From the NCBI GenBank assembly GCA_965204735.1, contig OZ242008.1, forward strand, positions 2,208,001-2,272,000: 64,000 bases of DNA, written 5' to 3'. The stretch comes from Longimicrobiales bacterium. GTDB taxonomy: Bacteria > Gemmatimonadota > Gemmatimonadetes > Longimicrobiales > Gaopeijiaceae. The notes under the pieces were generated by a model, which did not search any database, had not been told where the DNA came from, and worked only from the letters and a program-made list of their open reading frames with translations. The position numbers and the translations under genes were made by a program. Below, piece by piece: positions 24,356 to 64,000 of this stretch; the stretch's first letter is position 1; each line of letters begins with the position of its first letter.

Positions 24356-27300
24356 CTAGTCAAAGGCGATCCTGCCGACGAGTCCGACGCGGCGTTCCGG
24401 GGGCTGGAGTCCGTCGGCCGCCTGCTCGCCGAAGAAGTCCATCACCAGGCGGAGGCCGGGGGCCTGCTGCTCGGCGGTCTCGCCGCCCAGCATCGCCCAC
24501 TGGGTCCCCACGTTCAGGCGGTAGCCGGCCGCGCCCTCGCGGCTCCAGCGACCGAACGGCTTGACCTGGCCGCCGCCGGGCAGCAGAACGCCGTAGCCCA
24601 CCTGCATCGCCAGGCGGGACGGCGTCCAGCCTCGTGCGTTCTGGGGCGCTCCGAAGCCGTGGGCGGACGGGAAGCCGTGGGCCGGCACGGCGCCGGGGCT
24701 CGGGGGACCGCCTTGACCGGTGGCGCCGCCGTAGCCGGCTTGGTCGCCGCTGGCGGGCACGCCGCTGCCGGGCTGCGCCGACGGGCCCAGGCCCGGCACG
24801 CCCGCGCTCCGCCACACGTCGTCGCCGCCCTGCCACAACGTCTGCGCGCCGCCCGAGGCATTGCCCCACGACGGCTCCAGCGAGAACGACAGCCCGCCGT
24901 CTTCGCGGCCGGGCTGGATACGCAGCGCCACTGCCGCGCCCCAATCCTTGAAGTTCCGGTCCTGGTGGATCAGCAGCATCCGGCCACGGGCGTCCAGGCT
25001 CAACCCGCTGCCCGCGTGCGTGAAGCCCAGCTCGGCGCCCGCCTCGGCGCCCATCCCCGTCTCCGCGTCGCCCCGATCGTAGCGACCGCCCACCTCGATG
25101 CGCGTGCGCATGGCCACGCCGCCGCTCGTCCACTGCCCGCCCAGCTCGGGCGCCAGCCGCACACGCTGCGCGTCGGCCGTCACCGCCGCCACGTGCACGT
25201 CCGACGCGTCCGTCATCATCCGCACCGCGAAAGCGTCGGCCTTCAGCGCCAAGCCGCCCACCAGCTTCTGGCGCACGCCCAGCGCGCCCATCCGCATCCG
25301 CAGGTCGGCGTCGTAGGTCGGACCCTGCTCGCCCACGTTGGCGGCACCCATTCCCGCACCCGCCAAGCCCCATATCCCGAAGCCGCCCTGCGACGACCAG
25401 CTCAGGTAGGGGTAGAGGCTGGTCAGGTGAGCCTTCGTCTTGCCCGCGCCGTTGATCCCGCTCTCGTAGTTCGCCGCCACGTCGCTGCGCGAGCCGGCCA
25501 CGCCCATCAAGAAGCCCGAGCCGAAGCGGTAGTCCAGACCCACGTACGCCGAGCGGGTGCGGCCGTCCATGGCGAAGTCGTCTTCGGGACGGCCCTCGAA
25601 TTCGCCCACGTTGGCCTGGCCCCACAGCGTCCAGCCGGCCTGGGAGGCCGCCTGCGCCGGGGATGCGTCGGGCGAGCCGCTGGCGGCATCGGCGTCGGCG
25701 CCGCCCTGGCCGTCGGGCGAGCCGCCACCGAAGGAGAGCTGGAACGAGCTCCGGGAGCGGAGGTCGCGGCCTGTCAGCGGGCTGAATGCGACGCCGCCGC
25801 GGGTGCGCTCGGCGCGGCCCGCATCCTCTTCCCGCTGGCCCTGGTACGAGCCGCCCAAGCCGAGGGTGCCGCTCGGAGCGCCGCCCAAGCCCGTCGCGCC
25901 GTCGCCGAAGAAGATGGCGGCCAAGTCCAGCGTCCCGCTCGGGATGCCGCCGGGTCCCGACCCGGTGCCCGGATGCGTGATCTGGAACCCGAGCAGGCCC
26001 GTTGCGTCCCGCACCAGCGACTCGAGTCCGCAACGGCCGCCCGAGACGCCCCCGCCCAAGCCCGCGCCGCCTTCGTCCGGGCCAGCGTGGGCCGATGCCG
26101 TCCTGGCGTGGGCCGACTCGCCCTGGCCTTGGTCCGCACCGCCTTGGCCCGAACCGCCATGGCCCGAGGCCGAGGCGCCCTGGCCCGACTTGCCCTGGCC
26201 CTGGTCCGCACCGGCTGGGCCTGCGGCTGCGCCACCAGCCGCGCCACCGGCTCCGAACGCACGGACCGAGGCCGTGCCGCTGGACACGCCGCCCGCGCCA
26301 CGGCCGCCGCCAAACGCGACGCAGCTCAGCGAGCGCCCGCCCAGCTGCACGTGCGAACGGCCCAGCGAACCCGACGACTCCAACCCCAACCGACCGCCGA
26401 TCGCGTCCACCGTCTCCGTGCCCAGCGACCGTCCGAACGCCGCCAGCGTCAGCTTCAACGCACGCGCCCGATCCGAACGCGACGCCGACACCGTCACGCT
26501 CGCCTGCTGCGTCGCCGTCAAGCCGCCCGCGTCCGTCGCCGTCACCGTCACCGTCGCCGCGCCGATCGCCTGCGGCGCCACCGACAACCGCCCCGCGCCC
26601 GACACCGACGCCGCCGCCACGTCCGGCGACGACGACACCACCACGTAGCTCAGCGCGTCGCCGTCCGGGTCACGGAAGTACTCGCCCAGACCCACCTCCC
26701 ACGGCGCGCCGCCCACCTCCAGCACCGGCGGCGACAGCGAGCCCACCGCCTCCGGCCCCTCGTTCACGTCCAGCAGCGTCACCACGACCGCCGCCTCCGC
26801 CGTCAGACCGCCCGCGTCCGTCACCCGCACCGTCAGCGCGAACTCCGGCGGACCGTCCTCGTAGTTCTCGCCGGCGCCTACGTAGCGCACCTGCCCGCTC
26901 GCGCCGTCCACCTGGAAGCGGCCCGCGTCGCCCTGCGCCAAGCTGTACGTCAGCGCGTCGTCGCGGTCCGGGTCCGTCGCCTCGACCCGTCCCAGCTCCC
27001 GAGGCCCGCGCACGTTCTCCGCCAGCTCGAACGCATATGCGGAGTCCGCGAACGCGGGCGCCTCGTTCACGTCCAGCAGCACCACCTTCACCTTCGCCAC
27101 CGCCGCCAGTCCCGCCCGGTCCGTCGCCACCACCTCGAACTCCCAGCCCTCTGGACCCGTCTCCGCGTCCTCGCCAGCGCCCACGTACCGCACCACGCCG
27201 CTCGACTCGCCCACGTCGAACAGCGCCGCGCCCGCGCCGCTCAAGCTGTAGCGCAGCGTGTCGCCAGCGTCCACGTCCGTCGCCTCGACCGCGCCGAGCT

Positions 27301-30300
27301 CGACCGGGCCCGCCACGTGCTCCGCCAACTCCCACTCCCAGATCGGCTCCACGAACACCGGGCCCTCGTTCCGGTCCTCGAGTGTCACCACCACACGCGC
27401 CCGCGCTGTGAGGCCGCCTCGGTCCGTCGCCGTCATTTCCAGCTCCCAGCTGCCCGGACCCGTCTCCGCATCCTCGCCGGACCCCACGTACCGCACCGCA
27501 CCGCTCGTCGCGTTCACCTTGAACCGCTCGGCGTCGCCCGCCGTCAGCGCGTACGACAGCCAGTCGCCGCCGTCCGGGTCCGTCGCCCGCACCTCGCCCA
27601 GCAGCAGCGGACCACGAGCGTTCTCCGCCAGATCGAAGGCGTACGCAGAGTCGGCGAACGCTGGCCCCTCGTTCACGTTCGTCAGCGCCACCGCCACGAC
27701 CGCCCGCGCGCTCGAACCCGCCAGGTCCGTCGCCGTCACCGCCAGCTCCCACGACTTCGGTCCCGCGCCCTCGTAGTCCTCGCCCGTCCCCACGTACCGC
27801 ACCTCGCCCGTCGCGCCGTCCACTTCGAAGCGGTCGGCGTCGCCCGACGCCAGCCGGTACGTCAGCGTGTCCCCCTCGTCCAGGTCCACCGCCTCCGCCA
27901 CGCCCAGCGCCAGCGGCCCGGCAGCGTTCTCCGCCATCGCGAAGGCGTAGCGCTCGGCCGTGAACACCGGCGCGTCGTTCACGTTCACCAGCCGCACCGT
28001 CACCGTCGCGTCGCCCGTCCGCTCTCCGTCGTCCGCCGTCGCGCGCACGATCATCACGAACTCCGAACGCGACTCCGCGTCCTCGCCCGTCCCCACGTAC
28101 CGCACCTCGCCGGTGCGAGCGTCGACCTCGAAGAGACCCTCGTCGCCCGCCGCCAGAGAGTACGTCACCTCGCCGCCGAAGGGGTCCGTCGCGCTCACCG
28201 TCCCCACCACCACCGGCCCCGACTCGTCCTCCGTCAGCTTGAACTCGTACTCCGCGCGACCGAACACCGGGTCCGTGCCTCCAGCCCCGTTCACCTGGTG
28301 CTCTTCGACGTTCTCCACCGCGTGGCCGCTCAAGTCCAGCGCCGCCGCCGTCGTGCCGCCCGCGATCCGCAGCGCGCCGCCTGCCGCCGTCAGCGCGTCG
28401 GCAGCGATGCTGATCCCGTCCTCGTCCCGGTCCGCAGGCTGCACCACGTACTCGAACACCAGCACCGGCGTGCCCGAGCCCGACACGTAGCTCGCGTGCC
28501 GCACGGCCGTTCCGATCTCGATCGCCAATCGCACGGGAGCGGTCGCAGCCGACATGTGGCCCGCCTGCTGCGGCGCCCCCGCCACCTCCACCGGTCGGCT
28601 GAACGTCACCGCCACCCGGATCACGCTGCGCGGACCGTACAGCCCGTTCGCGCCCGGCGTGCTCGTCACCGTCATCCCCACCACCGCCGGAACCGCCTCG
28701 ACCGTGCCGTCCACCTTGTCGTTCGCAGCCGCCGCGATCGCGTGGCTGCCCAACGCCAGAACCGCCGGACGAACCCCGTCCGCCGTGTTCACGATCGTCG
28801 CGCCGTTCAGCGTCAGCGCCGCAGCAGCCACGCCCACGCCGTCGGCGTCCGCGTCCACGCCGCCCGTGCCGCTGCCGCCACTGCCCGCGCCCTGCACGCG
28901 GTACGCGAACGACAGCGTCGCCGTGCCGCTGCCGCTGGCGTAGCTCGCCTGACGCGTCGCCGTGCCCACCGTCAGCGCCAGCTGCGGCGCGCCCGTCACC
29001 GTCACCGCACGGTCGAACGTCACCTGCACCTCGATCCGCTCGCCCAGGCCGTACGTGTCGCCGCTCTCCGGCGTGCTCGACACTGCGACGCCCGTCGCCG
29101 ACGCGCCCGCCAGCGTGCCGTCCACCTTGTGGCCCGCAGCAGCGCTCAACGCATGGCTGCCCAGTCCCAGAGCCGCTGCAGTCGTGCCGTTGCGGGCGTC
29201 AGCGATCGTCCCGCTGTTCAGCGCCAGCGCACTCGTGCCCACCTCGATCCCGTCGGTGTCGGCGTCCGCCTGCACCACCGTGTACCGGAACGTCAGCGTG
29301 TGCGTGCCCGTACCGCTCGCGTAGTCCGCCTGCCGCGTCTGCGCGCCCACCGTCAGCGCCACCTGCGGCGTGCCCGTCACGCTCACGCGACGGTTGAACG
29401 TCACCTGCACCTCGATCCGCTCGCCCCGACCGTACGTCGTCGCCACCGCCGGCGAACTCGTCAGCGACACGCCGCTCACCGACGCCGCCGTGAACGTCCC
29501 GCCCGCAACCTTGTGGCCCGAGCTGTTGCTCACCGCATGGGCGCCCAGCCCCAGAACGGCGTCCACCGTGCCGTTCGCCACGTCGATCGTCCCGCCGTTC
29601 AGCGCCAGCGCGCTCGCGCCGATGCTCAGCCCGTCGGCGTCCGCGTCCGCCGTCACCACCACGTACCGGAACACCAGCGACGCCGTGCCCGTCCCGCTCG
29701 CGTAGCTCGCCTGCTTCGTCACGGTCCCGATCGTCAGCGCCAGCTGCGGCGTGCCCGTCACGTCCACACCCTTGTTGAACGTCACCGTCGCGACCACCGT
29801 GTCGCCACGCTCGAACGTGTCGCCGATCGGCGGCGACGCGATCGACACGCCGCTCACCCCTGGCGGTCCCTGGGCGCCGTCCACGCGATGGGCCGCGTCG
29901 TTCGATATCGCGTGGCTGCCCAGCCCCAGGCTCGCTGCCGTCGTGCCGTCGCGGGCGTCGGCAATCGCGCCGCCGTTCAGCCCCAGTGCGCTCGCGCCGA
30001 TGCTGAGCCCGTTCGCGTCCGCGTCCCCAGCCACCACCTCGTACCGGAACGTCAGCTGCTTGCCGGCGGTCGCCGAGACGTACGCCGCTTGGCGGGTCTG
30101 CGAACCGATCGTCAGCGCCAGCTGCGGCGCGCCCGTCACCGTCACGTTGCGGTCGAACGTCACCTCGACCTCGATCTGCTCGCTCAACCCGTACGTGCCG
30201 CCGCCCGCCGGGCTGCTCGTGATCGACACCTCGCTCACCGACGACGCCGTGAACGTCCCGCCCGCGACGCGGCGCGCGCCGTCGTTGCCGATCGCGTGGT

Positions 30301-33300
30301 GCGCCAAGCTCAGCAGGGCGTCCGTCGTTCCGCCCGCCACGTCGATCGTCCCGCCGTTCAGCGCCAACGCGCTCGCGCCCACGCTCAACCCGTCCGTGTC
30401 CGCGTCCGCCTGCACCACCACGTACCGGAACACCAGCGCCGTCGTCCCCGTCCCCGATGCGTAGCCCGCCTGCCGCGTCTGCGAACCAATCGACAACGCC
30501 AGCTGCGGCGTCCCCGTCACGTCCACCGCCTTGTTGAACGTCACCGTCGCAACCACCGTGTCGCCCCGCTCGAACGTGGCGCCCACCGGCGGCGCAGCCA
30601 CCGACAGCCCCACCACCCCCGGCGGACCCAAGCTGCCATTCACCTTGTGCGACGCGTCGTTCGTCACCGCGCTCGCGCCCAGCCCCAGCGCCGCAGCCGC
30701 AGCGCCCGGACGCACGTCCGCGATCGTGCCGCCGTTCAGCACGAGCGCGCTCGCGCCGATGCTGATTCCGTCGGTGTCCGCGTCCGCCGGACGGACCGCG
30801 TAGGCAAACACCAGCGTGTCCGCCTTGCTGGAAGCGGCCACGTAGCTCGCCTGCCGCGTCTGCGTCCCGATCGTCAGCGCCAGCCGCGGCGAGCCCGTCA
30901 CCGCCACCGGTCGCCCGAACGCCACCTTCACCTCGATCTGCTCGCCCAGCTGGTACGTGCTCGCGCTCGCCGGGGTGCTCGAGATCGTCATCGCAGTCAC
31001 CGCCGGCGTCGTGAACGTGCCGCCCGCAACCTTGTGGCCCGCGCTGTTCGTCACCGCGCTCGCGCCCAACCCCAGCGTCGCGTCCAGCGTCCCACCCGCG
31101 ACCCGGATCGTCCCGCCGTTCAGCGCCAACGCGCTCGCGCCGATGCTCAACCCGTCCGCGTCCGCGTCGCCGCTCGCCACCACGTACCGGAACACCAGCG
31201 TGTCCGTACCCGTCCCGCTCGCGTACGCCGCCTGCCTGGTCGCGCTCCCGATCGTCAGCGCCAGACGCGGCACGCCCGTCACGTCCACCGACCGGTTGAA
31301 CACCAGCGACACCTCGATCGTCTCGCCCCGCTCGAAGGTGTCGCCCACCGTCGGCGCACTGATCGACAGCCCGGTCACCCCCGGCGGCCCCCGGCTGCCG
31401 TCCACCTTGTGCGCCGCCGCGTTCGCAATCGCGTTGCTCCCCAGTCCCAGGCCCGCCGCCGTCGTGCCGTCGCGCGCGTCGGCGATCGTCCCGCCGTTCA
31501 GCGCCAACGCGCTCGCACCGATGCTGATCCCCGTCGAGTCCTCGTCCGCCGCCACCACCGTGTAGCCGAACACCAGCGTCGCCGTCCCGCTCCCGCTCGC
31601 GTACGACGCCTGCCGCGTCTGACTCCCGATCCCCAAAGCCAGCTGCGGCCCGCCCGTCACCGTCACCGGGCGCGTGAACCCAACCTCGACCTCGATCACC
31701 TCCGTTCGTCCGTAGATGCTGTCGCTCGACGGAGCACTCGAAATCGTCACCCCGCTCACCGCCGCAGCCGTGAACGTCCCGCCCGCAACCTTGTAGTTCC
31801 CGTTGTTGGTGACGTAGTGATCGCGCAGGCTCACCACCGCGTCCGTCGTACCGCCCGACACCCGGATCGTCCCGCCGTTCAGCGCCAACGCGCTCGTGCC
31901 GATGCTGATCCCGTCCGCGTCCACGTCCGCTGTCACCACCACGTACCGGAACGCCAGCGTGTCCGTGCCCGTGCCAGCAGCGTAGCTCGCCTGCTTCGTC
32001 GCGCTCCCGATCCCCAGCGCCAGCTGCGGCGTACCCGTCACCGCCACCGCCTTGTTGAACGCGACCTTCACCTCGATCGTCTCGCCACGCTCGAACGTGT
32101 CGCCCACATGAGGCGAGCCGATCGACAGCGCACTCACACCCGGCGGTCCGAGCGCGCCGTCCACCTTATGCGACGCCGCGTTCGCGATCGCGCTGGATCC
32201 CAGTCCCAGGCTTGCCGCCGTCGAACCGTCCCGCGCGTCGTTGATCGTGCCGCTGTTCAGAGCCAACGCGCTCGCGCCGACGCTGACGCCGTCGCTGTCC
32301 GCGTCCGCAGCCGCCACCTCGTAGCCGAACGTCAGCGTCTTCGTCCCCGTCCCGCTCGCGTACTCCGCCTGTCGCGTCACCGCGCCCACCGTCAGCGCCA
32401 GCTGCGGCGTGCCCGTCACGTTCACCGGCCGCGCGAATGTCACCTCGACCTCGATCTCCTCGCCCAGACCGTACGTGTCCCCGCTCGACGGAGCACTCGA
32501 GATCGTCACCCCGCTCACCGACGACGCCGTGAACGTCCCGCCCGCCACCTTGTGCCCCGTGCTGTTCGTCACCGCGTGCGTGCTCAGCCCCAAGGTCGCG
32601 TCCAGCGTCCCGCCCGACAGCCGGATCGTCCCGCTGTTCAGCGCCAGCGCGCTCGCACCGATGCTCAACCCGTCCGCGTCCACGTCCGCCGTCACCACCG
32701 TGTACTGGAACACCAGCGCCGTCGTGCCCGTGCCGCTCGCGTACGACGCCTGCCGCGTCTGCGTACCGATCCCCAGCGCCAGCTGCGGCGTCCCCGTCAC
32801 GTCCACCGGCCGGTTGAACGTCACCGTCGCCGCAATCACGTCGCCCCGCTCGAACGTGTCGCCCACCGGCGGCGACGCGACGACCAACCCCGTCACCCCC
32901 GGCGGTCCCTGCGCGCCGTCCACCTTATGCGCCGCGGCGTTCGATATCGCGTAGCTCCCCAGGCCCAGGCCCGCCGCCATCGTCGTGTCGCGAGCGTCCG
33001 AGATCGTGCCGCCGTTCAGCGCCAATGCGCTCGCGCCGATGCTGATCCCGTTCGCGTCCGCGTCCGCCGCCGCCACCACGTAGCCGAACGTCAGCGTCTT
33101 CGTACCCGTCCCGCTCGCGTACTCCGCCTGCCGCGTCTGCGAACCAATCGTCAGCGCCACCCGCGGCGTGTCCGTCACCATCACCCGCCGGTTGAACGTC
33201 ACCTCGACCTCGATCTGCTCCGTCCGGCCGTACGTGCTGTCGCTCGCCGGAGCGCTCGTGATCGACACGCCCGCAACCGTCGCCGCCGTGAACGTCCCGC

Positions 33301-39238: not shown

Positions 39239-39294
39239 GGCACGCCACCTGCATCCAGCTTTCGTCCGAGATGGCGAATACTTATTATGGCGAA

Positions 39295-44686: not shown

Positions 44687-44690
44687 ACGG

Positions 44691-48460: not shown

Positions 48461-48512
48461 GCGGCGGAGGGCCAGACGGTCCAGCGGGGCGCGCGCCTGC
48501 CCTGCTCTACGA

Positions 48513-49373: not shown

Positions 49374-49374
49374 C

Positions 49375-49485
49375 GGGCGCGTCGCCGCGTCCATGGCTGA
49401 ACGGGGACGGCCGCCGGAACGCCATCACGCAACCTCCCGAAGCTCAAGGGCGCGTCGCCGCTTCCATGGCTGAACGGGGACGGCT
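49375..49485. repeat. 37-38-bp direct repeat (2 copies, 73-bp period) between convergent genes
   Basis: GGGCGCGTCGCCGC(G/T)TCCATGGCTGAACGGGG(G)ACGGC at 49375 and 49448. Confidence 0.85.
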
Positions 49486-49519
49486 GTCGGGATCGCTCCC
49501 CCGCTCCCTCGGGCGCGGA

Positions 49520-49912
49520 TCAGAGCACGACGTCGCCGCCCGGATCTCGCTTTCTTAGGCGTGCCAACCTCTCTTCCGCCTGCGCGAGCCGTCGGGCACG
49601 CGCAGCCGGGTCGGTGGCGGCAGCCCCCCAGACGAGAATGCCGTCGGGCCTGGTGGGCACGTGCAGCACGTCGCCCTCCGCAACCTGGAAGGGGAGTTCC
49701 TCGACCCGCACTTCCACGTCGCCCGACGCGCCCGAAACCGGCTCTTCGTCGGCGACCAATGTCGCGACGCCGGCCTCGATCCGGTCCACCACGTAGGTCC
49801 GCCGGTCCGGCGCCGGCTCGGGATCGCCTGCACCTTCACGCCGCTCGGGAGCGTCCACCACGTAAGTCCGCCGGTCCGCCGGCGCCGGGGCTGGTTGTTG
49901 CGCTTCGCTCAA
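49520..49912 (-). CDS. DUF3006 domain-containing protein
   Basis: YVVDRIEAGVATL...LPFQVAEGDVL...RLARL; TTG overlaps the stop of the ComEC-like gene, a common pairing. Confidence 0.8.
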   Translation of the reverse strand: MSEAQQPAPAPADRRTYVVDAPERREGAGDPEPAPDRRTYVVDRIEAGVATLVADEEPVSGASGDVEVRVEELPFQVAEGDVLHVPTRPDGILVWGAAATDPAARARRLAQAEERLARLRKRDPGGDVVL

Positions 49913-50892: not shown

Positions 50893-50905
50893 CGGACGCC
50901 GGGCC

Positions 50906-53900: not shown

Positions 53901-56900
53901 TCCACCGGGCCCGCCATGTGCTCCGCCAACTCCCACTCCCAGATCGACTCCACGAACACCGGGCCCTCGTTCCGGTCCTCGAGCGTCACGACGACACGCG
54001 CCCGCGCTGTCAGGCCGCCTCGGTCCGTCGCCGTCACCTCCAGCTCCCAGCTGCCCGGGCCCGTCTCCGCGTCCTCGCCTGCGCCCACGTACTGCACCGC
54101 ACCGCTCGTCGCGTTCACCTTGAACCGCTCGGCGTCGCCCGCCGTCAGCGCGTACGACAGCCAGTCGCCGCCGTCCGGGTCCGTCGCCCGAACCTCGCCC
54201 AGCAGCAGCGGACCACGAGCGTTCTCCGCCAGATCGAAGGCGTACGCAGAGTCGGCGAACGCTGGCCCCTCGTTCACGTTCGTCAGCGCCACCGCCACCA
54301 CCGCCTTGGCGCTCGCGCCCGCCAGGTCCGTCGCCGTGACTTCCAGCTCCCACGACTTCGGCCCCGCGCCCTCGTAGTCCTCGCCCGAGCCCACGTACTG
54401 CACCTCGCCCGTCGCGCCGTCCACCTCGAACCGATCGGCGTCGCCCGCCACCAGCCGGTACGTCAGCGTGTCCCCTTCGTCCAGGTCCACCGCCTCCGCC
54501 ACGCCCAGCGCCAGCGGCCCGGCAACGTTCTCCGCCATGGCGAAGGCGTACCGCTCCGCCGTGAACACCGGCGCGTCGTTCACGTTCACCAGCCGCACCG
54601 TCACCGTCGCGTCGCCCGTCCGCTCCCCGTCGTCCGCCGTCGCGCGCACGATCATCACGAACTCCGAACGCGCCTCCGCGTCTTCGCCGCTGCCCACGTA
54701 CCGCACCTCGCCGGTGCGAGCGTCCACCTCGAAGAGGCCCTCGTCGCCCGCCGCCAGCGAGTACGCCACCTCGCCGCCGAAGGGGTCCGTCGCGCTCACC
54801 GTCCCCACCACCACCGGCCCCGCCACATCCTCCGTCAGCTCGAACTCGTACTCCGCTCGACCGAACACCGGGTCCGTTCCGCCCGCCCCGTTCACCTGGT
54901 GTTCCTCCAGGTTCTCCACCGCGTAGCTGCCCAGGTCCAACACCGCCGCCGTCGTGCCGCCCGCGATCCGCAGCGCGCCGCCTGCCGCAGTCAGCGCGTC
55001 GGCCGGGATGCTGATCCCGTCCTCGTCCCGGTCCGCGGGCTGAACCACGTACTCGAACACCAGCACCGGCGTGCCCGAACCCGACACGTAGCTCGCGTGC
55101 CGCACCGCCGTCCCGATCTCGATCGCCAGGCGCACCGGAGCCGTCGCAGCCGACATGTGGCCTGCCTGCTGCGGCGCCCCCGCCACCTCCACTGGACGGC
55201 TGAACGTCACCGCCACCCGGATCACGCTGCGCGGACCGTACAGTCCGTTCGCTCCCGGCGTGCTCATCACCGTCATCCCCACCACCACCGGCACAACCTC
55301 GACCGTGCCGTCCACCTTGTCGTTCGCGGCCGCCGCGATCGCGTGGCTGCCCAACGCCAGCACCGCCGGACGAACGCCGTCCGCCGTGTTCACGATCGTC
55401 GCGCCGTTCAGCGTCAGCGCGGTTGCCGCCACGCCCACGCCGTCGGCATCGGCGTCGACGCCGCCCGTCCCGCTCCCGCCACTGCCCGCGCCCTGCACGC
55501 GGTACGCAAACGACAGCGTCGCCGTGCCGCTGCCGCTGGCGTAGTTCGCCTGCCGCGTCGCCGTGCCCACCGTCAGCGCCAACTGCGGTGCGCCCGTCAC
55601 CGTCACCGCCCGGTCGAACGTCACCTCCACCTCGATCCGCTCGCCCAAGCCGTAGGTGTCCCCGCTCTCGGGCGTGCTCGACACCGCGACACCCGTCACC
55701 GACGCGCCCGCCAGCGTGCCGTCCACCTTGTGGCCCGCAGCCGCGCTCAACGCGTGGCTGTCCAGTCCCAACGCCGCTGTCGTCGTGCCGTTGCGGGCGT
55801 CGGCGATCGTCCCGCTGTTCAGCGCCAACGCGCTCGCGCCGACTTCGATCCCGTCGGTGTCGGCGTCCGCCTGCACCACCGTGTAGCGGAACGTCAGCGT
55901 GTACGTGCCCGTCCCGCTCGCGTAGCCCGCCTGCCGCGTCGCAGCGCCCACCGTCAGCGCCACCTGCGGCGTGCCCGTCACGGTCACGCGACGGTTGAAC
56001 GTCACCTGCACCTCGATCTGCTCGTCGCGACCGTACGTCGTCGCCACCGCCGGCGAGCTCGTCAGCGACACGCCGCTCACCGACGCCGCCGTGAACGTCC
56101 CGCCCGCAACCTTGTGCCCCGCGCTGTTCGTCACCGCGTGGGCGCCCAGCCCCAGAACGGCGTCCACCGTCCCGCCCGCCACGTCGATCGTACCGCCGTT
56201 GAGCGCCAACGCGCTTGCGCCGATGCTCAGCCCGTCCGCGTCCGCGTCCGCCGTCACCACCACGTACCGGAACACCAACGACGCCGTGCCCGTGCCGCTT
56301 GCGTAGCTCGCCTGCTTCGTCCCAGCACCGATCGTCAGCGCCAGCTGCGGCGTGCCCGTCACCGCCACAGCCTTGTTGAACGTCACCGTCGCAACCACCG
56401 TGTCGCCACGCTCGAAGGTGTCGCCGACTGGCGGCGACGCAATCGTCACGCCGCTCACTCCCGGCGGGCCCTGGTTCCCGTCCACACGATGGGCCGCGTC
56501 GTTCGATATCGCGTGGCTGCCCAGCCCCAGGCTCGCTGCCGTCGTGCCGTCGCGGGCGTCGGCAATCGTACCGCCGTTCAGCGTCAAAGCGCTCGCGCCC
56601 ACGCTCAACCCGTTCGCGTCCGCGTCCCCAGCCACCACCTCGTACCGGAACGCCAGCTGCCGGCCCGCGGTCACCGAGACGTACGCCGCTTGGCGGGTCC
56701 GGCTCCCGATCGTCAGCGCCAGCTGTGGCGCGCCCGTCACCGTCACGGTGCGGTTGAACGTCACCTCCACCTCGATCTGCTCGCTCAACCCGTACGTGCT
56801 GCCGCCCGCCGGGCTGCTCTGGATCGACACCTCGCTCACCGACGACGCCGTGAACGTCCCGCCCGCCACGCGGCGCGCGCGGTCGTTGCTGATCGCATGG

Positions 56901-59900
56901 TGCGCCAAGCTCAGCAAGGCGTCCGTCGTCCCGCCCGCCACGTCGATCGTCCCGCCGTTCAGCGCCAAGGCGCTAGCGCCGATGCTGATTCCGTCGCCGT
57001 CCGCGTCCGCCTGCGCCACCACGTACCGGAACACCAGCACCGTCGTGCCCGTCCCCGATGCGTAGCCGGCCTGCCGCGTCTGCGAACCGACCCCCAGCGC
57101 CAGCTGCGGCGTCCCCGTCACGTCCACCGCCTTGTTGAACGTCACCGTCGCAACCACCGTGTCGCCCCGCTCGAACGTCGTGCCCACCGGCGGCGCATCC
57201 ACCGACAAGCCCACGACGCCCGGCGGCCCCAAGCTGCCGTTCACCTTGTGCGCCGCAGCGTTCGACACTGCGTTCGCGCCCAGGCCCAGCGCCGCGGCCG
57301 CAGCGCCCGGACGCACATCGTTGATGGCTCCGCCGTTCAGCGTCAGCGCGCTCGCGCCGATGCTGATCCCGTCGGTGTCGGCGTCCGCCGGACGGACTGC
57401 GTAGCCGAACACCAGCGTGTCCGCCTTGCTCGTCGCCGACTCGTAGTCCGCCTGCCGCGTGACCGTGCCGATCGTCAGCGCGAGACGCGGCGAGCCCGTC
57501 ACTGCCACAGGACGGCCGAACGCCACCTTCACTTCGATCGACTCGCCCAGCTGGTACGTGCTCGCGCTCGCCGGCGTGCTCGACACCGTCACCGCGCTCA
57601 CCGCCGGCGTCGTGAACGTGCCGCCCGCAACCTTGTGGCCCCCGCTGTTCGTCACCGCGCTCGTGCCCAGGCCCAGCGTCGCGTCCAGCGTGCCGCCCGC
57701 AACCCGGATCGTCCCGCCGTTCAGCGCCAACGCGCTCGCGCCGATGCTGATCCCGTCCGCGTCCGTGTCGCCGCTCGCCACCACGTAGCGGAACACCAGC
57801 GTGTCCGTCCCTGTCCCGCTCGCGTAGCTCGCCTGCCTAGTCGCGCTCCCGATCGTCAGCGCCAGCCGCGGAGTCCCCGTCACGTCCACCGACCGGTTGA
57901 ACACCAGCGACACCTCGATCGTCTCGCCCCGCTCGAAGGTGTCGCCCACCGTCGGCGCACTGATCGACAGCGCCGTCACGCCCGGCGGCCCGCGGCTGCC
58001 GTCCACCTTGTGCGCAGCAGCGTTCGCGACCGCGTTGCTCCCCAGACCCAGGCTCGCCGCCGTCGAACCGTCGCGCGCGTCGGCGATCGTACCGCCGTTC
58101 AGCGCCAACGCGCTCGCGGCGATGCTCAACCCGTCGCTGTCCGCGTCCGCCGCCTGCACCGTGTAGCCGAACGCCAGCGTCGTCGTGCCGCTCCCGCTCG
58201 CGTACGCCGCCTGCCGCGTCTGCGAACCGATCCCCAGCGCCAGCTGCGGCACACCCGTCACCGTCACCGGGCGCGTGAACGACACCTCGACCTCGATCCG
58301 CTCCGTCCGTCCGTAGATGCTGTCGCTCGACGGACTGCTCGTGATCGCCACGCCGCTCACCGCAGACGCCGTGAACGTGCCGCCCGCCACCTTGTGGCCC
58401 GTGCTGTTCGCCACCGCGCTCGCGCCCAGTCCCAGCACCGCGTCCGTCGTCGTGGCCAACCGCCGGACCGTGCCGCCGTTCAGGGCCAGAGCGCTCGCCC
58501 CGATGCTGATCCCGTCCGCGTCCACGTCCGCAGCCGCCACCACGTACTGGAACACCAGCGTGTCCGTGCCCGTGCCCGCAGCGTAGCTCGCCTGCTTCGT
58601 CGCGCTCCCGATCCCCAAAGCCAGCTGCGGCGTCCCCGTCACCGCCACCGTCTTGTTGAACGCAACCTTGACCTCGATCGTCTCGCCTCGCTCGAACGTG
58701 TCGCCCACATGAGGCGAACCGATCAACAACCCCGTCACGCCCGGCGGCCCCTGCGCGCCGTCCACCTTGTGCGCAGCCGCGTTCGTGATCGCGCTGGAAC
58801 CCAAGCCCAGGCTCGCAGCCGTCGAACCGTCCCGCGCGTCGGCGATTGTTCCGCCGTTCAGCGCCAGTGCGCTCGTGCCGACGCTCAACCCGTCGCTGTC
58901 CGCGTCCGCAGCCACCACCATGTAACTGAACGTCAGCGTCTTCGTGCCTGTCCCGCTCGCGTACTCCGCTTGGCGCGTCCGGGTCCCCACCGTCAGCGCC
59001 AGCTGTGGCGTGCCCGTCACGTTCACCGGCCGCACGAACGTCACCTCGACCTCGATCTCCTCGCCCAACCCGTAGGTGTCGCCGCTCGACGGAGTGCTCG
59101 TGATCGCCACGCCACTCACCGACGACGCCGTGAACGTCCCGCCCGCCACCTTGTGCCCCGTGCTGTTCGATATCGCGTGCGTGCCCAGCCCCAAAGTCGC
59201 GTCCAGCGTGCCGCCCGACAGCCGGATCGTGCCGCTGTTCAGCGCCAACGCGCTCGTCCCGATGCTCAATCCGTTCGCGTCCACATCCGCAGTCACCACC
59301 GTGTACTGGAACACCAGCGCCGTCGTGCCGCTCCCGCTCGCGTAGCTCGCCTGACGGGTCTGCGTACCGATCCCCAGCCCCAGCTGCGGCGTCCCCGTCA
59401 CGTCCACCGCACGGTTGAACGTCAACGTCGCCGCAATCACGTCGCCCCGCTCGAACGTGTCGCCGGTCGGCGGCGACGCGACGACCAAGCCCGTCACGCC
59501 CGGCGGTCCTTGGTTGCCGTCCACCTTGTGCGCCGCGGCGTTCGCAATCGCGTTCGACCCCAAGCCCAGCCCGGCCGCCTCGCTCGCGTCACGAGCGTCC
59601 GCAATCGTTCCGCCGTTCAGCGCCAATGCGCTCGCGCCGATGCTGATCCCGTTCGCGTCCGCGTCCGCAGCCGCCACCGTGTAGCCGAACGTCAGCGTCG
59701 TCGTGCCGCTGCCGCTCGCGTAGTTCGCCTGCCGCGTCTGCGAACCAATCGTCAGCGCGACCTGCGGCGTCCCCGTCACCGCTACGCGCCGGTCGAACGT
59801 CACCTCGACCTCGATCCGCTCCGTCCGACCGTACGTGCTGTCGCTCGCCGGAGCGCTCGATATCGACACGCCGCTCGCCGACGCCGCCGTGAACGTCCCG

Positions 59901-62900
59901 CCCGCGACTCGGCGCGCGCCGTCGTTGCTGATTGCATGATGCGCCAAGCTCAGCAGCGCGTCCGTCGTACCGCCCGACACGTCGATCGTCCCGCCGTTCA
60001 GCGCCAGCGCGCTCGCGCCGATGCTCAACCCGTCTGCGTCCGCGTCCGCCTGCACCACCACGTACTGGAACACCAGCGCCGTCGTCCCCGTCCCCGACGC
60101 GTAGCCCGCCTGCCGCGTCTGCGTCCCAATCGACAACGCCAGCTGCGGCGTGCCCGTGACCGCCACCGCCTTGTTGAACGTCACCGTCGCCGCCACCGTG
60201 TCGCCCCGCTCGAACGTCGTGCCCACCGGCGGCGCAGCTACAGACAAACCCACCACGCCCGGCGGCCCCAAGCTGCCGTTCACCTTGTGCGACGCCGCGT
60301 TCGACACTGCGTTCGCGCCCAGGCCCAGCGCAGCAGCAGTCGCGCCCGGACGCACGTCGTTGATGGCTCCACCGTTCAGCGTCAGCGCGCTCGCGCCGAT
60401 GCTGATCCCGTCGGTGTCCGCGTCCGCCGGACGGATCGCGTAGCCGAACACCAGCGTGTCCGCCTTGCTCGTCGCCGACTCGTAGCTCGCCTGCCGCGTG
60501 ACCGTGCCGATCGTCAGCGCCAGACGCGGCGAACCCGTCACCGCCACAGGACGACCGAACGCCACCTTCACCTCGATCGACTCGCCCAGCTGGTACGTGC
60601 TCGCGCTCGCCGGCGTGCTCGACACCGTCACCGCAGTCACTGCCGGCGTCGTGAACGTCCCGCCCGCAACCTTGTGGCCCGCGCTGTTCGTCACCGCGCT
60701 CGCGCCCAGGCCCAGCGTCGCGTCCAGCATCCCGCCCGCGACCCGGATCGTCCCGCCGTTCAGCGCCAACGCGCTCGCGCCGATGCTCAACCCGTCCGAG
60801 TCCGCGTCGCCGCTCGCCACCACGTACCGGAACACCAACGTGTCCGTGCCCGTCCCGCTCGCGTAGCTGGCCTGCCGTGTCGCGCTCCCGATCGTCAGCG
60901 CCAGACGCGGCGTGCCCGTCACGTCCACCGCACGGTTGAAGCCCATCGACACATCGATCGTCTCGCCACGCTCGAAGGTGTCGCCCACCGTCGGCGCACT
61001 GATCGACAGCCCTGTCACGCCCGGCGGTCCCCGGCTGCCGTCCACCTTGTGCGACGCTGCGTTCGCGATCGCGTTGCTCCCCAGTCCCAGGCTCGCTGCC
61101 GTCGTGCCGTCGCGCGCGTCGGCGATCGTACCGCCGTTCAACGCCAGCGCGCTCGCCCCGATGCTGAGCCCCGTCGAGTCGACATCCGCCGATGCCACCG
61201 TGTAGCCGAATACCAGCGTCGTCGTGCCGCTCCCGCTTGCGTACGCCGCCTGTCGCGTCTGCGTGCCGATCCCCAGGGCCAGCTGCGGCGGGCCCGTCAC
61301 CGTCACCGGGCGCGTGAACGTCACCTCGACCTCGATCCGCTCCGTTCGACCGTACGTGCTGTCGCTCGACGGCTCGCTCGTGATCGTCACGCCGCTCACC
61401 GCAGACGCCGTGAACGTCCCGCCCGCCACCTTGTGGCCCGTGCTGCGGATCACCGCGTGGCTGCCCAGCCCCAGCACCGCGTCCGTCGCCGTGCCCGACC
61501 GACGGATCGTACCACCGTTCAGCCGCAAATCGGACGCGCCGATGCCCAACCCGTCCGCATCCGCGTCCGCAGCCACCACCACGTACCGGAACACCAGCGT
61601 GTCCGTCCCCGTCCCGCTCGCGTAGTCCGCCTGCTTCGAGCCGCTCGAGAACCGCAGCTGCAGCTGCGGCGTCCCCGTCACCGCCACCGCCTTGTTGAAC
61701 GCGACCTTGACCTCGATCGTCTCGCCTCGCTCGAACGTGTCGCCCACATGAGGCGCACCGATCAACAACCCCGTCACACCCGGCGGACCCTGCGCGCCGT
61801 CCACCTTGTGCGCAGCCGCGTTCGCGATCGCGCTGGAACCCAAGCCCAGGCTCGCAGCCGTCGAACCGTCACGAGCGTCGTTGATCGTGCCGCTGTTCAA
61901 CGCCAACGCGCTCGCGCCGACGCTGACGCCGTCGCTGTCCGCATCCCCAGCCACCACCTCGTAGCTGAACGTCAGCGTCTTCGTCCCCGTCCCGCTCGCG
62001 TAGTCCGCCTGCCGCGTCGCAGCCCCCACCGTCAGCGCCACCTGCGGCAGGCCCGTCACGTTCACCGGCCGCACGAACGTCACCTCGACCTCGATCTCCT
62101 CGCCCAGACCGTACGTGTCCCCGCTCGACGGAGCGCTCGAGATCGTCACGCCGCTCACCGACGACGCCGTGAACGTCCCGCCCGCTACCTTGTGCCCCGT
62201 GCTGTTCGATATCGCGTGCGTGCCCAGTCCCAAAGTCGCGTCCAGCGTGCCGCCCGACAGCCGGATCGTGCCGCTGTTCAACGCCAACGCGCCCGTCCCG
62301 ATGCTCAACCCGTCCGCGTCCGCGTCCGCAGTCACCACCGTGTACTGGAACACCAGCGCCGTCGTGCCGCTCCCGCTCGCGTAGCTCGCCTGACGGGTCT
62401 GCGCACCGATCGCCAGCGCCAGCTGCGGCGTACCCGTCACCGCCACCGCACGGTTGAACGTCAACGTCGCCGCAATCACGTCGCCACGCTCGAACATGTC
62501 GCCCACGGGCGGCGACGCGAGGACCAAGCCGATCACCCCCGGCGGTCCCTGGTTGCCGTCCACCTTGTGCGACGCAGCGTTCGCAATCGCGTTCGACCCC
62601 AGACCCAGCCCCGCCGCCTCGCTCGCGTCGCGAGCGTCCGCAATCGTTCCGCCGTTCAGCGCCAATGCGCTCGCCCCGATGCTGATCCCGTTCGCGTCCG
62701 CGTCCGCAGCCACCACCGTGTAGCCGAACGTCAGCCCCTTCGTCCCCGTCCCGCTCGCATACGACGCCTGCCGCGTCTGCGAACCAATCGTCAGCGCCAG
62801 CTGCGGCGTGCCCGTCACCGCCACGCGCCGGTCGAACGTCACCTCGACCTCAATCCGCTCCGTCCGACCGTACGTGCTGTCGCTCGCCGGGCTGCTCGTG

Positions 62901-64000
62901 ATCGCCACGCCGCTCGCCGTCGCCGCCGTAAACGTCCCGCCCGCGACTCGGCGCGCGCCGTCGTTGCTGATCGCATGGTGCGCCAAGCTCAGCAAAGCGT
63001 CCGTCGTCCCGCCCGCCACGTCGATCGTCCCGCCGTTCAACGCCAGCGCGCTCGCGCCGATGCTCAACCCGTCCGAGTCCGCGTCCGCCTGCACCACCAC
63101 GTAACGGAACACCAGCGCGGTCGTGCCCGTCCCCGAAGCGTAACTCGCCTGCCGTGTCTGCGAACCGATTCCCAACGCCAGCCGCGGCGTGCCCGTCACG
63201 TCCACCGCCTTGTTGAACGTCACCGTCGCCGCCACCGTGTCGCCACGCTCGAACGTCGTGCCCACCGGCGGCGAAGCCACCGACAAGCCCACCACGCCCG
63301 GCGGCCCCAGGCTGCCGTTCACCTTGTGCGCCGCAGCGTTCGACACTGCGTTCGCGCCCAGGCCCAGTGCCGCAGCGGTCGAGCCCGGACGCACGTCGTT
63401 GATGGCTCCGCCGTTCAGCGTCAGCGCGCTCGCGCCGATGCTGATCCCGTCCGCGTCCGCGTCCGCCGGACGGACCGCGTAGCCGAACACCAGCGTGTCC
63501 GCCGTGCTGGAAGCGGCCATGTAGCTGGCCTGCCGCGTCTGCGAACCGATCGTCAGCGCCAGACGCGGCGAGCCCGTCACCGCCACAGGACGGCCGAACG
63601 CCACCTTCACCTCGATCGACTCGCCCAGCTGGTACGTGCTCGCGCTCGCCGGCGTGCTCGAGACCGTCACGCCGCTCACCGCCGGCGTCGTGAACGTCCC
63701 GCCCGCAACCTTGTGACTCCCGCTGTTCGTCACCGCGCTCGCGCCCAGCCCCAGCGTTGCGTCCAACGTCCCGCCCGCGACCCGGATCGTCCCGCCGTTC
63801 AGCGCCAAAGCGCTCGCGCCGATGCTCAACCCGTCCGCGTCCGCGTCGCCGCTCGTCACCACGTAGCGGAACACCAGCGTGTCCGTGCCCGTCCCGCTGG
63901 CGTAGATCGCCTGGCGCGTCGCGCTCCCAATCGTCAGCGCCAGCCGCGGCGTACCCGTCACGTCCACCGACCGGTTGAACAGCAGCGACACCTCGATCGT
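50906..64000 (-). CDS. Giant repetitive surface protein/adhesin B (partial, >4360 aa; paralog of adhesin A)
   Basis: ORF open to the right edge; at least 24 Ig-like repeats, 5 cadherin-like domains, an Ig-like domain and the same barrel; colinear with adhesin A at a ~26.6-kb offset. Confidence 0.9.
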   Translation of the reverse strand, partial: TIEVSLLFNRSVDVTGTPRLALTIGSATRQAIYASGTGTDTLVFRYVVTSGDADADGLSIGASALALNGGTIRVAGGTLDATLGLGASAVTNSGSHKVAGGTFTTPAVSGVTVSSTPASASTYQLGESIEVKVAFGRPVAVTGSPRLALTIGSQTRQASYMAASSTADTLVFGYAVRPADADADGISIGASALTLNGGAINDVRPGSTAAALGLGANAVSNAAAHKVNGSLGPPGVVGLSVASPPVGTTFERGDTVAATVTFNKAVDVTGTPRLALGIGSQTRQASYASGTGTTALVFRYVVVQADADSDGLSIGASALALNGGTIDVAGGTTDALLSLAHHAISNDGARRVAGGTFTAATASGVAITSSPASDSTYGRTERIEVEVTFDRRVAVTGTPQLALTIGSQTRQASYASGTGTKGLTFGYTVVAADADANGISIGASALALNGGTIADARDASEAAGLGLGSNAIANAASHKVDGNQGPPGVIGLVLASPPVGDMFERGDVIAATLTFNRAVAVTGTPQLALAIGAQTRQASYASGSGTTALVFQYTVVTADADADGLSIGTGALALNSGTIRLSGGTLDATLGLGTHAISNSTGHKVAGGTFTASSVSGVTISSAPSSGDTYGLGEEIEVEVTFVRPVNVTGLPQVALTVGAATRQADYASGTGTKTLTFSYEVVAGDADSDGVSVGASALALNSGTINDARDGSTAASLGLGSSAIANAAAHKVDGAQGPPGVTGLLIGAPHVGDTFERGETIEVKVAFNKAVAVTGTPQLQLRFSSGSKQADYASGTGTDTLVFRYVVVAADADADGLGIGASDLRLNGGTIRRSGTATDAVLGLGSHAVIRSTGHKVAGGTFTASAVSGVTITSEPSSDSTYGRTERIEVEVTFTRPVTVTGPPQLALGIGTQTRQAAYASGSGTTTLVFGYTVASADVDSTGLSIGASALALNGGTIADARDGTTAASLGLGSNAIANAASHKVDGSRGPPGVTGLSISAPTVGDTFERGETIDVSMGFNRAVDVTGTPRLALTIGSATRQASYASGTGTDTLVFRYVVASGDADSDGLSIGASALALNGGTIRVAGGMLDATLGLGASAVTNSAGHKVAGGTFTTPAVTAVTVSSTPASASTYQLGESIEVKVAFGRPVAVTGSPRLALTIGTVTRQASYESATSKADTLVFGYAIRPADADTDGISIGASALTLNGGAINDVRPGATAAALGLGANAVSNAASHKVNGSLGPPGVVGLSVAAPPVGTTFERGDTVAATVTFNKAVAVTGTPQLALSIGTQTRQAGYASGTGTTALVFQYVVVQADADADGLSIGASALALNGGTIDVSGGTTDALLSLAHHAISNDGARRVAGGTFTAASASGVSISSAPASDSTYGRTERIEVEVTFDRRVAVTGTPQVALTIGSQTRQANYASGSGTTTLTFGYTVAAADADANGISIGASALALNGGTIADARDASEAAGLGLGSNAIANAAAHKVDGNQGPPGVTGLVVASPPTGDTFERGDVIAATLTFNRAVDVTGTPQLGLGIGTQTRQASYASGSGTTALVFQYTVVTADVDANGLSIGTSALALNSGTIRLSGGTLDATLGLGTHAISNSTGHKVAGGTFTASSVSGVAITSTPSSGDTYGLGEEIEVEVTFVRPVNVTGTPQLALTVGTRTRQAEYASGTGTKTLTFSYMVVAADADSDGLSVGTSALALNGGTIADARDGSTAASLGLGSSAITNAAAHKVDGAQGPPGVTGLLIGSPHVGDTFERGETIEVKVAFNKTVAVTGTPQLALGIGSATKQASYAAGTGTDTLVFQYVVAAADVDADGISIGASALALNGGTVRRLATTTDAVLGLGASAVANSTGHKVAGGTFTASAVSGVAITSSPSSDSIYGRTERIEVEVSFTRPVTVTGVPQLALGIGSQTRQAAYASGSGTTTLAFGYTVQAADADSDGLSIAASALALNGGTIADARDGSTAASLGLGSNAVANAAAHKVDGSRGPPGVTALSISAPTVGDTFERGETIEVSLVFNRSVDVTGTPRLALTIGSATRQASYASGTGTDTLVFRYVVASGDTDADGISIGASALALNGGTIRVAGGTLDATLGLGTSAVTNSGGHKVAGGTFTTPAVSAVTVSSTPASASTYQLGESIEVKVAFGRPVAVTGSPRLALTIGTVTRQADYESATSKADTLVFGYAVRPADADTDGISIGASALTLNGGAINDVRPGAAAAALGLGANAVSNAAAHKVNGSLGPPGVVGLSVDAPPVGTTFERGDTVVATVTFNKAVDVTGTPQLALGVGSQTRQAGYASGTGTTVLVFRYVVAQADADGDGISIGASALALNGGTIDVAGGTTDALLSLAHHAISNDRARRVAGGTFTASSVSEVSIQSSPAGGSTYGLSEQIEVEVTFNRTVTVTGAPQLALTIGSRTRQAAYVSVTAGRQLAFRYEVVAGDADANGLSVGASALTLNGGTIADARDGTTAASLGLGSHAISNDAAHRVDGNQGPPGVSGVTIASPPVGDTFERGDTVVATVTFNKAVAVTGTPQLALTIGAGTKQASYASGTGTASLVFRYVVVTADADADGLSIGASALALNGGTIDVAGGTVDAVLGLGAHAVTNSAGHKVAGGTFTAASVSGVSLTSSPAVATTYGRDEQIEVQVTFNRRVTVTGTPQVALTVGAATRQAGYASGTGTYTLTFRYTVVQADADTDGIEVGASALALNSGTIADARNGTTTAALGLDSHALSAAAGHKVDGTLAGASVTGVAVSSTPESGDTYGLGERIEVEVTFDRAVTVTGAPQLALTVGTATRQANYASGSGTATLSFAYRVQGAGSGGSGTGGVDADADGVGVAATALTLNGATIVNTADGVRPAVLALGSHAIAAAANDKVDGTVEVVPVVVGMTVMSTPGANGLYGPRSVIRVAVTFSRPVEVAGAPQQAGHMSAATAPVRLAIEIGTAVRHASYVSGSGTPVLVFEYVVQPADRDEDGISIPADALTAAGGALRIAGGTTAAVLDLGSYAVENLEEHQVNGAGGTDPVFGRAEYEFELTEDVAGPVVVGTVSATDPFGGEVAYSLAAGDEGLFEVDARTGEVRYVGSGEDAEARSEFVMIVRATADDGERTGDATVTVRLVNVNDAPVFTAERYAFAMAENVAGPLALGVAEAVDLDEGDTLTYRLVAGDADRFEVDGATGEVQYVGSGEDYEGAGPKSWELEVTATDLAGASAKAVVAVALTNVNEGPAFADSAYAFDLAENARGPLLLGEVRATDPDGGDWLSYALTAGDAERFKVNATSGAVQYVGAGEDAETGPGSWELEVTATDRGGLTARARVVVTLEDRNEGPVFVESIWEWELAEHMAGPVELGTVEATDVDAGDTLRYSLSGARAALFDVGESSGVVRYVGAGEDAETGPEGWEFEVVATDRAGLAAVAKVRVLLLDVNEAPAFVDSAYAFDLAENVRGPRELGRVEATDPDRGDALTYTLAQGDAGRFDVNGASGVVRYVGAGEDYEDGPPEFALVVRVTDAGGLTAEAAVVVTLLDVNEGPEAVGSLSPPVLEVGGAPWEVGLGEYFRDPDGDALSYVVVSSLPDVAAASVSGAGRLSVAPQGIGAAVVTVTATDAGGLTATQQASVTVSASRSDRARALKLTLAAFGRSLGTETVDAIGGRLGLESSGSLGRSHVQLGGRSLSCVAFGGGRGSGVASSGTSSSRAVGDGGAAGVADAGQGGADQGQGASAPGQGGPGQDGSDQGGADQGHGGSGQDGSRQGGSGQDQGGSDQASTASAHAGAGLGGGVSGGRCGLESLVRDATGLLGLQITHPGVAGSGPGGIPGGTLDLAALLFGDATADMGGAPHGALGLGGSYQGQREEDALPAERERGGIAFSPLTGRDLRSRSSFQLSFGGSPDGQGAAVAEGDGTDAGLPSASPAQTASQAGWTLWGQANVGEFEGRPEDDFAMDGRTRSAYLGLDYRFGSGFLMGLAGSRSDMAANYESGINGVGKTKAHLNSLYPYASWSSQGGFGIWGLAGAGRGAANVGETGPTYDADLDMRMGALGVRQRLVGGLALKADAFAVRMTTDASNGHVVAVKADAQRVRLAPELGGQWSGGSVAMRTRIEVGGRYDRGDAETGMGAEAGAELGFTHAGSGLSLDARGRMLLIHQDRNFKEWGAGVALRLQPGREDGGLSFSLEPSWGNASGGAQTLWQGGSDVWRNAGVSGLGAGLGAAGPAAPGGGASANGDPAAQGDDPAAGLPVVPGPASNGLSATRAVPGWAPERLAMELSYGVFLPGGSQLKPFGRWSREGPAGYRLNVGTQWAILSGKATEDAQAPGMSLLLDFFGEQVADGRLPLERRLGLLGRIKFDQD
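56850..64000 (-). repeat. 3039-bp higher-order tandem repeat (8 Ig-like domains, 1013 aa), more than 2 copies
   Basis: Homologous track ORFs recur at exactly +3039 (57459/60498, 59076/62115, 59415/62454, 60150/63189). Confidence 0.9.

Follow-up and report, generated by a model that had tools for sequence, protein, structure and literature searches.

Results

Two giant genes of common design lie in the window

The window, by which we mean the whole stretch of 64,000 nucleotides that was analysed, contains one complete giant gene (A) and the 3' part of a second (B), both read from the minus strand of a complete, single-contig genome of 4.14 Mb and 69% GC (G000). The open reading frame of A occupies 24356–39784; from its signal-peptide methionine the gene is 14.9 kb long and encodes 4,960 residues. 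The frame of B is open from its stop at 50906 to the equivalent of window position 91669, 13,587 codons from stop to stop. Counted from its own signal-peptide methionine, B measures 40.1 kb, encodes 13,358 residues and extends 27 kb past the window. The sizes in the original prediction, about 14.9 kb and more than 13 kb, were correct for A, while B is three times as long as its visible part suggested.

Both products have the same order of parts: Ig-like repeats of about 127 residues, five cadherins, a Big_9 Ig domain, a low-complexity linker and a beta-rich C-terminus (Table 1). The cadherin (E 5e-35) and Big_9 (E 5e-23) assignments are Pfam matches, with five cadherin starts per gene. By eye and motif alone, a further six FN3-like domains were identified in B. 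The two genes are colinear at an offset of 26,601, gap-free over 26,301–33,300 (7.0 kb) and about 92% identical, with all 35 of the 200-nt segments compared being 77–99% identical and the majority above 90%. The predicted pair of paralogs with a common layout is therefore real in its paralogy, and the repeat number differs as expected, at 28 units in A and 90 in B. The C21 tract that had been noticed is also there, as G21 on the plus strand and C21 on the coding strand of A; B has a C21 tract of its own beyond the window.

Table 1. Positions of the features of genes A and B in the window
Feature	Position	Strand	Remark
Gene A C21 tract	39295–39315	−	16 nt past an in-frame upstream ATG (39331), 56 nt ahead of the signal-peptide ATG (39238)
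Gene A leader: possible N-terminal extension with poly-Pro, then Sec-type signal peptide	39146–39331	−	putative start
Gene A array of 28 units (~127 aa), predicted Ig-like beta-sandwiches	28286–39145	−	
Gene A five cadherin-like domains	26765–28273	−	Pfam
Gene A Big_9-type Ig domain	26483–26764	−	Pfam
Gene A linker, Gly/Gln low-complexity loops	25637–26482	−	
Gene A anchor: 12 autotransporter-beta-domain-like strands, helix, low-complexity loop, 5 further conserved strands	24356–25636	−	
Conserved intervening genes, outside the system	39790–50905	.	floA, nfeD, acyl-CoA catabolism genes, MBL protein
Gene B anchor, barrel and extension	50906–52189	−	
Gene B Big_9 domain and low-complexity linker	52190–53365	−	
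Gene B five cadherin-like domains	53366–54874	−	
Gene B array, base part of 90 units	54875–64000	−	a further 27 kb, with six FN3-like domains and a C21 tract, lie outside the window

The 11 kb between the genes hold floA, nfeD, two enoyl-CoA hydratases, an aldehyde dehydrogenase, a 3-hydroxyacyl-CoA dehydrogenase, a stand-alone ComEC-like MBL protein and a gene that we take, from its sequence, to be a thiolase. An Rfam scan of the window returned a tRNA (16285–16367) as its sole match.

That a single gene was mis-assembled as two is unlikely, as A and B are about 8% apart where they are colinear, their flanks are unique, and the two flanks of B are neighbours in the three congeners of the source genome (G001, G002 and G003; one genome per species was compared). 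Among reads and contigs from public runs, none was seen to span the whole of gene A or B.

A and B belong to a genome-wide family

A search of G000 with the barrel found 17 autotransporter-like genes, with reading frames of 1,678–13,587 codons, one of them split by a frameshift. A and B are thus two members of a length-variable family, as predicted, rather than a pair; its 17 genes total 303 kb, or 7.3% of the genome. The congeners gave 7 (G001), 16 (G002) and 17 (G003) barrel matches. Elsewhere in the same bacterial family, 3 of 21 other genera had one or two matches each (many of these genomes being fragmented), and none was found in 16 genomes of other families, many of them also fragmented, from which absence is not implied.

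The largest copies are of 10,700–13,600 codons (32–41 kb) in all four species, an apparent ceiling that might reflect a limit on transfer or export. One G000 paralog (2,771,489–2,811,507; 13,400 codons) lacks a tract and has a frameshift early in the barrel, the latter through either a lesion or an assembly error. A second subfamily with the same type of anchor lies at 396,531, 597,638, 2,876,696 and 1,448,662; its units, presumably Calx-beta-like, alternate with the 127-aa unit or replace it.

For FloA, the best relatives are found in bins of Longimicrobiales and other Gemmatimonadota. The 5' region of gene A is present in 18 runs from 8 studies, of which four rows, all of one study, are labelled sponge metagenome and three marine metagenome, the majority of the rest having coded names. 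A contig from a sponge run matched this region over 1,162 nt with 12 differences. Association of the bacterium with a sponge is shown for this one study, in keeping with the host association that had been proposed, and suggests symbiosis. No RNA datasets were listed among the runs with the gene A 5' region.

C tracts mark the 5' ends of most family genes

The lengths of C/G runs in G000 are bimodal, with no runs of 11 nt and then 27 runs of 12–36 nt. Twelve of these 27 long runs lie at family genes, where 0.07 would be expected. Twelve of the 17 family genes have a tract of 16–33 C at the 5' end, always with C on the coding strand, and 11 of the 12 closest paralogs carry one. In the congeners, C tracts occur in 10 of 16 copies in G002, 10 of 17 in G003 and 1 of 7 in G001; one copy in G002 and one in G003 have a G tract instead. 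The proposal that these genes are switchable is thereby strengthened, and the tracts are likely to turn them on and off by slippage.

How a tract would act was examined at 30 main-clade loci, which are paralogs and not independent of one another. The tract lies 18–114 nt upstream of the ATG at which a typical signal peptide starts. Between the tract and this ATG, stops occupy none of 460 codons in the frame of the gene, against 17 of 918 in the other frames. An ATG is found within 30 nt upstream of the tract at 22 of the 30 loci, against 7 of 30 for AGT, TAG or GTA, although TGA (19/30) and CAT (16/30) are common there too. The ribosome-binding sites of the upstream ATGs are often weak. That of the downstream ATG has a median of −2.5 kcal/mol, compared with −3.9 for 205 genome starts and −3.0 for internal ATGs. 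Together, the lack of stops, the enrichment of upstream ATGs and the weak downstream ribosome-binding site favour initiation ahead of the tract and a switch by frameshift. We therefore consider it rather more likely than not that main-clade translation begins just before the tract, with slippage shifting the frame. Read in this way, 6 of 11 G000 copies (including A and B) would be in frame, 4 out of frame and 1 without a near start, although these states depend on assembled homopolymer lengths, which are unreliable.

Alternatively, the tracts might act on transcription, or as 5' leader elements that tune the level of expression, with translation starting at the ATG of the short signal peptide. 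Three divergent orthologues fit this description, since their tract directly precedes a TTGACA followed by a 17-nt spacer and a −10-like box, and two of them have in-frame stops after the tract. One G003 copy has G14 in the promoter spacer itself, between TTGACT and TATAAT. In addition, an ATG is conserved before each hydrophobic segment, and several copies have TGATG overlaps. The tract at TTGACA and the G14 in a spacer indicate that promoter effects occur too. As a general account of the tracts, however, this alternative is doubtful: the main clade has the stop-free frame and the upstream ATGs described above, its downstream ATG has a weaker ribosome-binding site than genome starts or internal ATGs, and other G000 tracts sit within coding regions, both in frame and out.

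No tract-length variants were seen in the contigs of five runs, and contigs drop rare variants. In an independent study one contig crosses the gene A tract with the same 21 bases, while other contigs break inside it. A mutator background was considered and rejected, mutS being present in all four genomes.

C tracts are also found at other large genes of G000. At 2,687,460 a tract inside a large gene splits the reading frame, and at 3,424,558 a tract is in frame; the G001 homologue of the latter gene (L024) has C26. Near both tracts are motifs that we take to be N6-methyltransferase-like, and the two are possible phase-variable restriction-modification genes. Clustered paralogous membrane-protein genes (967,590–985,456 and 2,853,444–2,856,239) have C tracts just 3' of the start, one copy being in frame (C14) and its twin out of frame (C19).

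Predicted anchor, stalk and tip

The C-terminal 426 residues were modelled with AlphaFold (pLDDT 78.8, 43 sequences) as 12 strands followed by a helix, a disordered loop and a second set of five strands. The best structure matches of the first 240–260 residues were autotransporter beta-domains. BrkA was the top match (Z 18.7, rmsd 3.1, 218 residues aligned), also in a second structure search, and lower scores were given by AIDA-I (Z 17.8), Hbp (17.3) and the 14-strand CymA (17.2); AIDA-I, Hbp, EspP, EstA and NalP were all among the top eight matches. The barrel itself had no Pfam or NCBIfam match, and PF03797 was found on 8 of 98 homologues. On the model, the C-terminal domain has the autotransporter beta fold. 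About 185 residues with five strands follow the 12th strand, in an extension that is conserved among homologues. Its last strand alternates and has Phe as the penultimate residue, which we take to resemble an outer-membrane insertion signal, so that the barrel is possibly larger than 12 strands. The 14-strand CymA and OmpG score within 1.5–2.5 Z units of BrkA. At the other end of the protein, a hydropathy scan predicts a Sec signal peptide for A, B and most paralogs, from a hydrophobic segment that closes with an A-x-x-Q type site. The passenger would then be exported through its own barrel, inserted in the outer membrane.

Three repeat units were modelled as beta-sandwiches (pLDDT 81), whose structure matches were generic Ig-like domains (best Z 8.3). 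The 127-aa unit had no sequence match in Pfam, NCBIfam or the PDB, and the first 1,080 residues of gene A gave nothing above the Pfam and NCBIfam cut-offs. In the Atlas the unit falls in unnamed clusters, some with Big_5 or Big_12 in 11–27% of members, a recognition that is sub-threshold. Assuming about 4 nm per domain, rod length would range very roughly from 130 nm in A to 400 nm in B.

The tip units of gene A have inserts that vary and are more aromatic, and across tip units aromatic residues make up 6.3%, against 4.3%. From their composition and variability, the tip units may be the binding part. An unlikely alternative is a protective or spacing coat that would ward off phage, grazing or host phagocytes, with no host ligand bound by the proteins. 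Their lengths of 3,500–13,400 residues would suit such a coat, as would the lack of a catalytic or known ligand-binding domain in the parts scanned. Against it, the tip units are at once the variable, the transferred (see below) and the more aromatic part of the protein, and cadherin and FN3 domains are named as sponge-enriched attachment candidates in the accessible part of a study of sponge symbionts (PMC8163846).

Modules and tips are probably exchanged

Within G000, units 23–37 of B match units 48–62 of the paralog at 2.81 Mb with 94–100% identity, and units 43–52 of B match its units 37–46 with 90–98%. The first 19 units of B have no G000 partner above 74%. Exact matches reach 503 nt between B and the 2.81-Mb paralog and 1,135 nt within one gene, and the base units of B are 90–96% identical to others of the same gene. 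For gene A, a paralog at a distance of 86 kb shows 91% identity, although units 1, 2, 7, 9 and 10 are unlike in the two. The swapping of modules and tips that had been foreseen is seen in the shared B units, and extends to tips held in common with another species.

Anchors and tips were compared in separate trees. The barrel tree had 30 rows (15 from G000, 12 of 16 from G002, 2 of 7 from G001 and 1 of 17 from G003), with the frameshifted and most divergent G000 copies left out. It clusters by genome, 11 G000 copies forming one clade (support 100/100) and 12 G002 copies another (99/95). A quick tree of the tips (the first three units) instead gave five starred G000–G002 pairs, A and B included, and the G000 label changes 13 times on the tip tree against 2 on the barrel tree. 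On this evidence, the anchors are seen to be homogenised within each genome by what looks like concerted evolution.

B and its G002 partner have a common block of 10.7 kb at 93.4% identity, and the 2.81-Mb paralog and its partner one of 19.2 kb at 94.8%; in G000–G002 blocks the identity begins at the start codon or within the signal peptide. Divergence at four-fold sites was 0.074 over 2,995 codons for the tip of B and 0.026 over 2,459 codons for the 2.81-Mb paralog. For 38 neighbouring genes the G000–G002 median was 0.46, with 1 of 38 below 0.15, in a control kept frame-safe by excluding blocks judged to be in the wrong frame (48–78% protein identity). Gene pairs with matching tips have differing unit counts, 90 against 88 and 93 against 76. 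In six further G000–G002 pairs, divergence rises from tip to base in three (tips 0.02–0.14, bases about 0.3 or more), is flat near 0.2–0.35 in one and lacks a low tip in the two whose G000 genes lie at 1.530 and 1.548 Mb. The pair at 2.41 Mb reaches only 0.19–0.23. Recent transfer of tips between G000 and G002 is the likely and best reading of these data.

Vertical descent under strong constraint, with the anchors alone homogenised and no transfer, would explain the alike tips only with great difficulty and is largely refuted. Concerted evolution of the anchors is indeed seen, and the unique tips lack conversion partners. Yet synonymous divergence of the tips (about 0.03–0.10) is 5–18 times below that of neighbouring genes of the same third-position GC, the matching tips lie at different sites, and their identity runs from the start codon or signal peptide. 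Moreover, G001 and G003 are closer to G000 by flank-gene divergence (0.34 and 0.37, against 0.45 for G002) and lack such blocks, with no match of at least 92% in three giant G001/G003 genes and none of at least 88% in 14 further stretches. That the common tips, or the A/B pair, are chimeras of long-read assembly is more improbable still: these are metagenome-assembled genomes with long repeats and no gene-spanning read, but the blocks are 5–7% apart and follow a gradient, flanks and anchors on both sides are species-specific, such blocks recur in at least five pairs, and short-read contigs of other studies match the gene A 5' end and the DNA upstream of it.

Outside the family, a BNR/sortilin-repeat gene (L078:1–2298 in G002; 3,354,848–3,357,106 in G000) is 96% identical between the two species, with four-fold divergence of 0.085, and is likely a second recent transfer.

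The genes occupy lineage-specific sites

The B site is empty in all three congeners, with the flanks 161–256 nt apart in each. The original prediction also held that the block between A and B might be excised or amplified. This is unsupported: each of the three congeners has conserved the genes of the block, immediately next to the other flank of B. An inversion of about 500 kb, specific to G000, has gene A at one of its ends. At the inversion breakpoint upstream of A, at window 39729–39872, a 63-nt direct repeat is found at the broken end of a small lipoprotein-like reading frame (39789–40181, minus strand).

Of 27 congener sites mapped on G000, 17 were empty, 3 were dropped as doubtful, 6 were breakpoints or unmapped, and 1 was a junction, where the upstream flank of one G000 paralog is joined to the downstream flank of another. 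Between these two direct paralogs G000 has a 173-kb block, which all three congeners carry elsewhere, at a position with nothing inserted in G000; it may have moved as a circle that integrated through a paralog.

Movement by transposons or IS elements in G000 was rejected, the paralogs having neither terminal repeats nor a transposase at their ends. Their flanks share no repeats beyond about 60–230 nt in two recent pairs, and no family gene in G000 ends closer than 2.5 kb to a multi-copy element. In the congeners, some copies do have IS or YhgA-like genes as neighbours: YhgA-like (PF04754) genes stand beside several of them (L041, L042, L083, L089, L080, L070, L059), and DDE transposases beside two G002 copies, one being 98% identical to a G000 element. 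Transformation is a possible route of transfer; the ComEC membrane domain is present in G000, G002 and G003 and was not found in G001, a genome that is 92% complete.

Diversification by a DGR seems unlikely; no sign of one was seen, and the sole G000 reverse transcriptase is 1.1 Mb from gene A. This reverse transcriptase gene (L122:1048–2598) is AT-richer than its host genome, follows a restriction-specificity-like gene and is probably defence-related.

Discussion

With reasonable confidence, we interpret the 17 genes as encoding a family of giant autotransporter adhesins in a sponge-associated bacterium, with tips that recombine among the genomic copies and with those of a sister species, and with C tracts that turn each gene on or off by slippage. 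The barrel would insert in the outer membrane and export a rod of Ig-like and cadherin domains, while gene conversion would homogenise the anchors and base repeats within each genome. New tips could arrive by two routes: incoming DNA might pair with a resident copy in the stalk and replace its tip, or a whole gene might land at a new site and have its base converted later. Both fit the gradient from tip to base. In the main clade, translation starting before the tract would let slippage shift the frame; in the divergent subfamily, where the tract abuts or fills the promoter, it would presumably act there. With such a system the cell would likely alter how far it reaches and how it binds host matrix or other cells, and evade recognition by host or phage.

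A broader picture, to which we would give an even chance, is that co-resident sponge symbionts keep a trans-species library of tips (blocks of 10–19 kb) on species-specific anchors, gated by homopolymers, and that the genes for proteins of 13,000 residues relocate without a transposase and drive chromosome rearrangement, on a barrel of perhaps more than 12 strands. Most of what is known of antigenic-variation machinery, in the form of repeat switches, gene conversion and length-variable stalks, comes from pathogens. In the present case the three elements come together in one gene family of an uncultured member of the Gemmatimonadota found in sponges, with autotransporter-type proteins of more than 13,000 residues, and the discordance of tip and anchor offers a direct and testable way into the question of how sponge symbionts acquire host attachment or recognition.

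Each ingredient is already known; what is new is the scale, the phylum and the cross-species tip library. A search of titles and abstract openings, with subscription papers outside its coverage, found no paper describing this adhesin family. The main text of a preprint on giant genes (10.1101/2023.11.21.568195) contains no Gemmatimonadota, cadherin or sponge, although its supplements could bear on novelty. Lateral transfer of cadherin and fibronectin III genes has been reported for sponge symbionts (PMC8163846), with the same domain types and habitat as here. That study counts domains in genome bins, and its accessible part does not describe giant genes, tip–anchor discordance or tracts.

The layout of signal peptide, passenger, linker and 12-strand beta-domain fold is that of type Va autotransporters such as BrkA, AIDA-I and EspP. 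Their passenger is a beta-helix, however, whereas here it consists of Ig-like, FN3-like and cadherin domains, and about 185 extra residues with five strands continue past the 12th strand. The accessible text of PMC10947273 concerns an inverse autotransporter, of a different lineage. Periscope proteins (PMC8201768) resemble the present ones in their tandem-domain stalk, high DNA identity between repeats and variable repeat number. As far as the main text of that paper goes, their repeat number varies between strains at one locus, while here it varies between paralogs and species; there is also no single terminal functional domain here, and the anchor is of the autotransporter type, a word absent from that text.

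For the switch, the closest parallels are NalP and MspA of Neisseria meningitidis, in which a poly-C tract in an autotransporter gene sets the frame to ON or OFF (PMC3723659), as a poly-C tract in an autotransporter gene may do here. According to the part of that paper available, these are single genes with 6–15 C and demonstrated switching, whereas here 12 of 17 paralogs have 16–33 C, the switching is predicted, and the passengers, unlike those of NalP and MspA, are repeat rods of up to 13,000 residues. For the exchange, the bab genes of Helicobacter pylori (PMC4552749) are similar: they too are paralogs for outer-membrane adhesins, carry repeat switches at the 5' end, undergo gene conversion, form chimeras and have empty loci. 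As described in the accessible part of that source, they are genes of about 2.2 kb at three fixed loci in one species, whereas the present genes measure 5–40 kb, occupy lineage-specific sites and hold blocks of 10–19 kb in common between two species.
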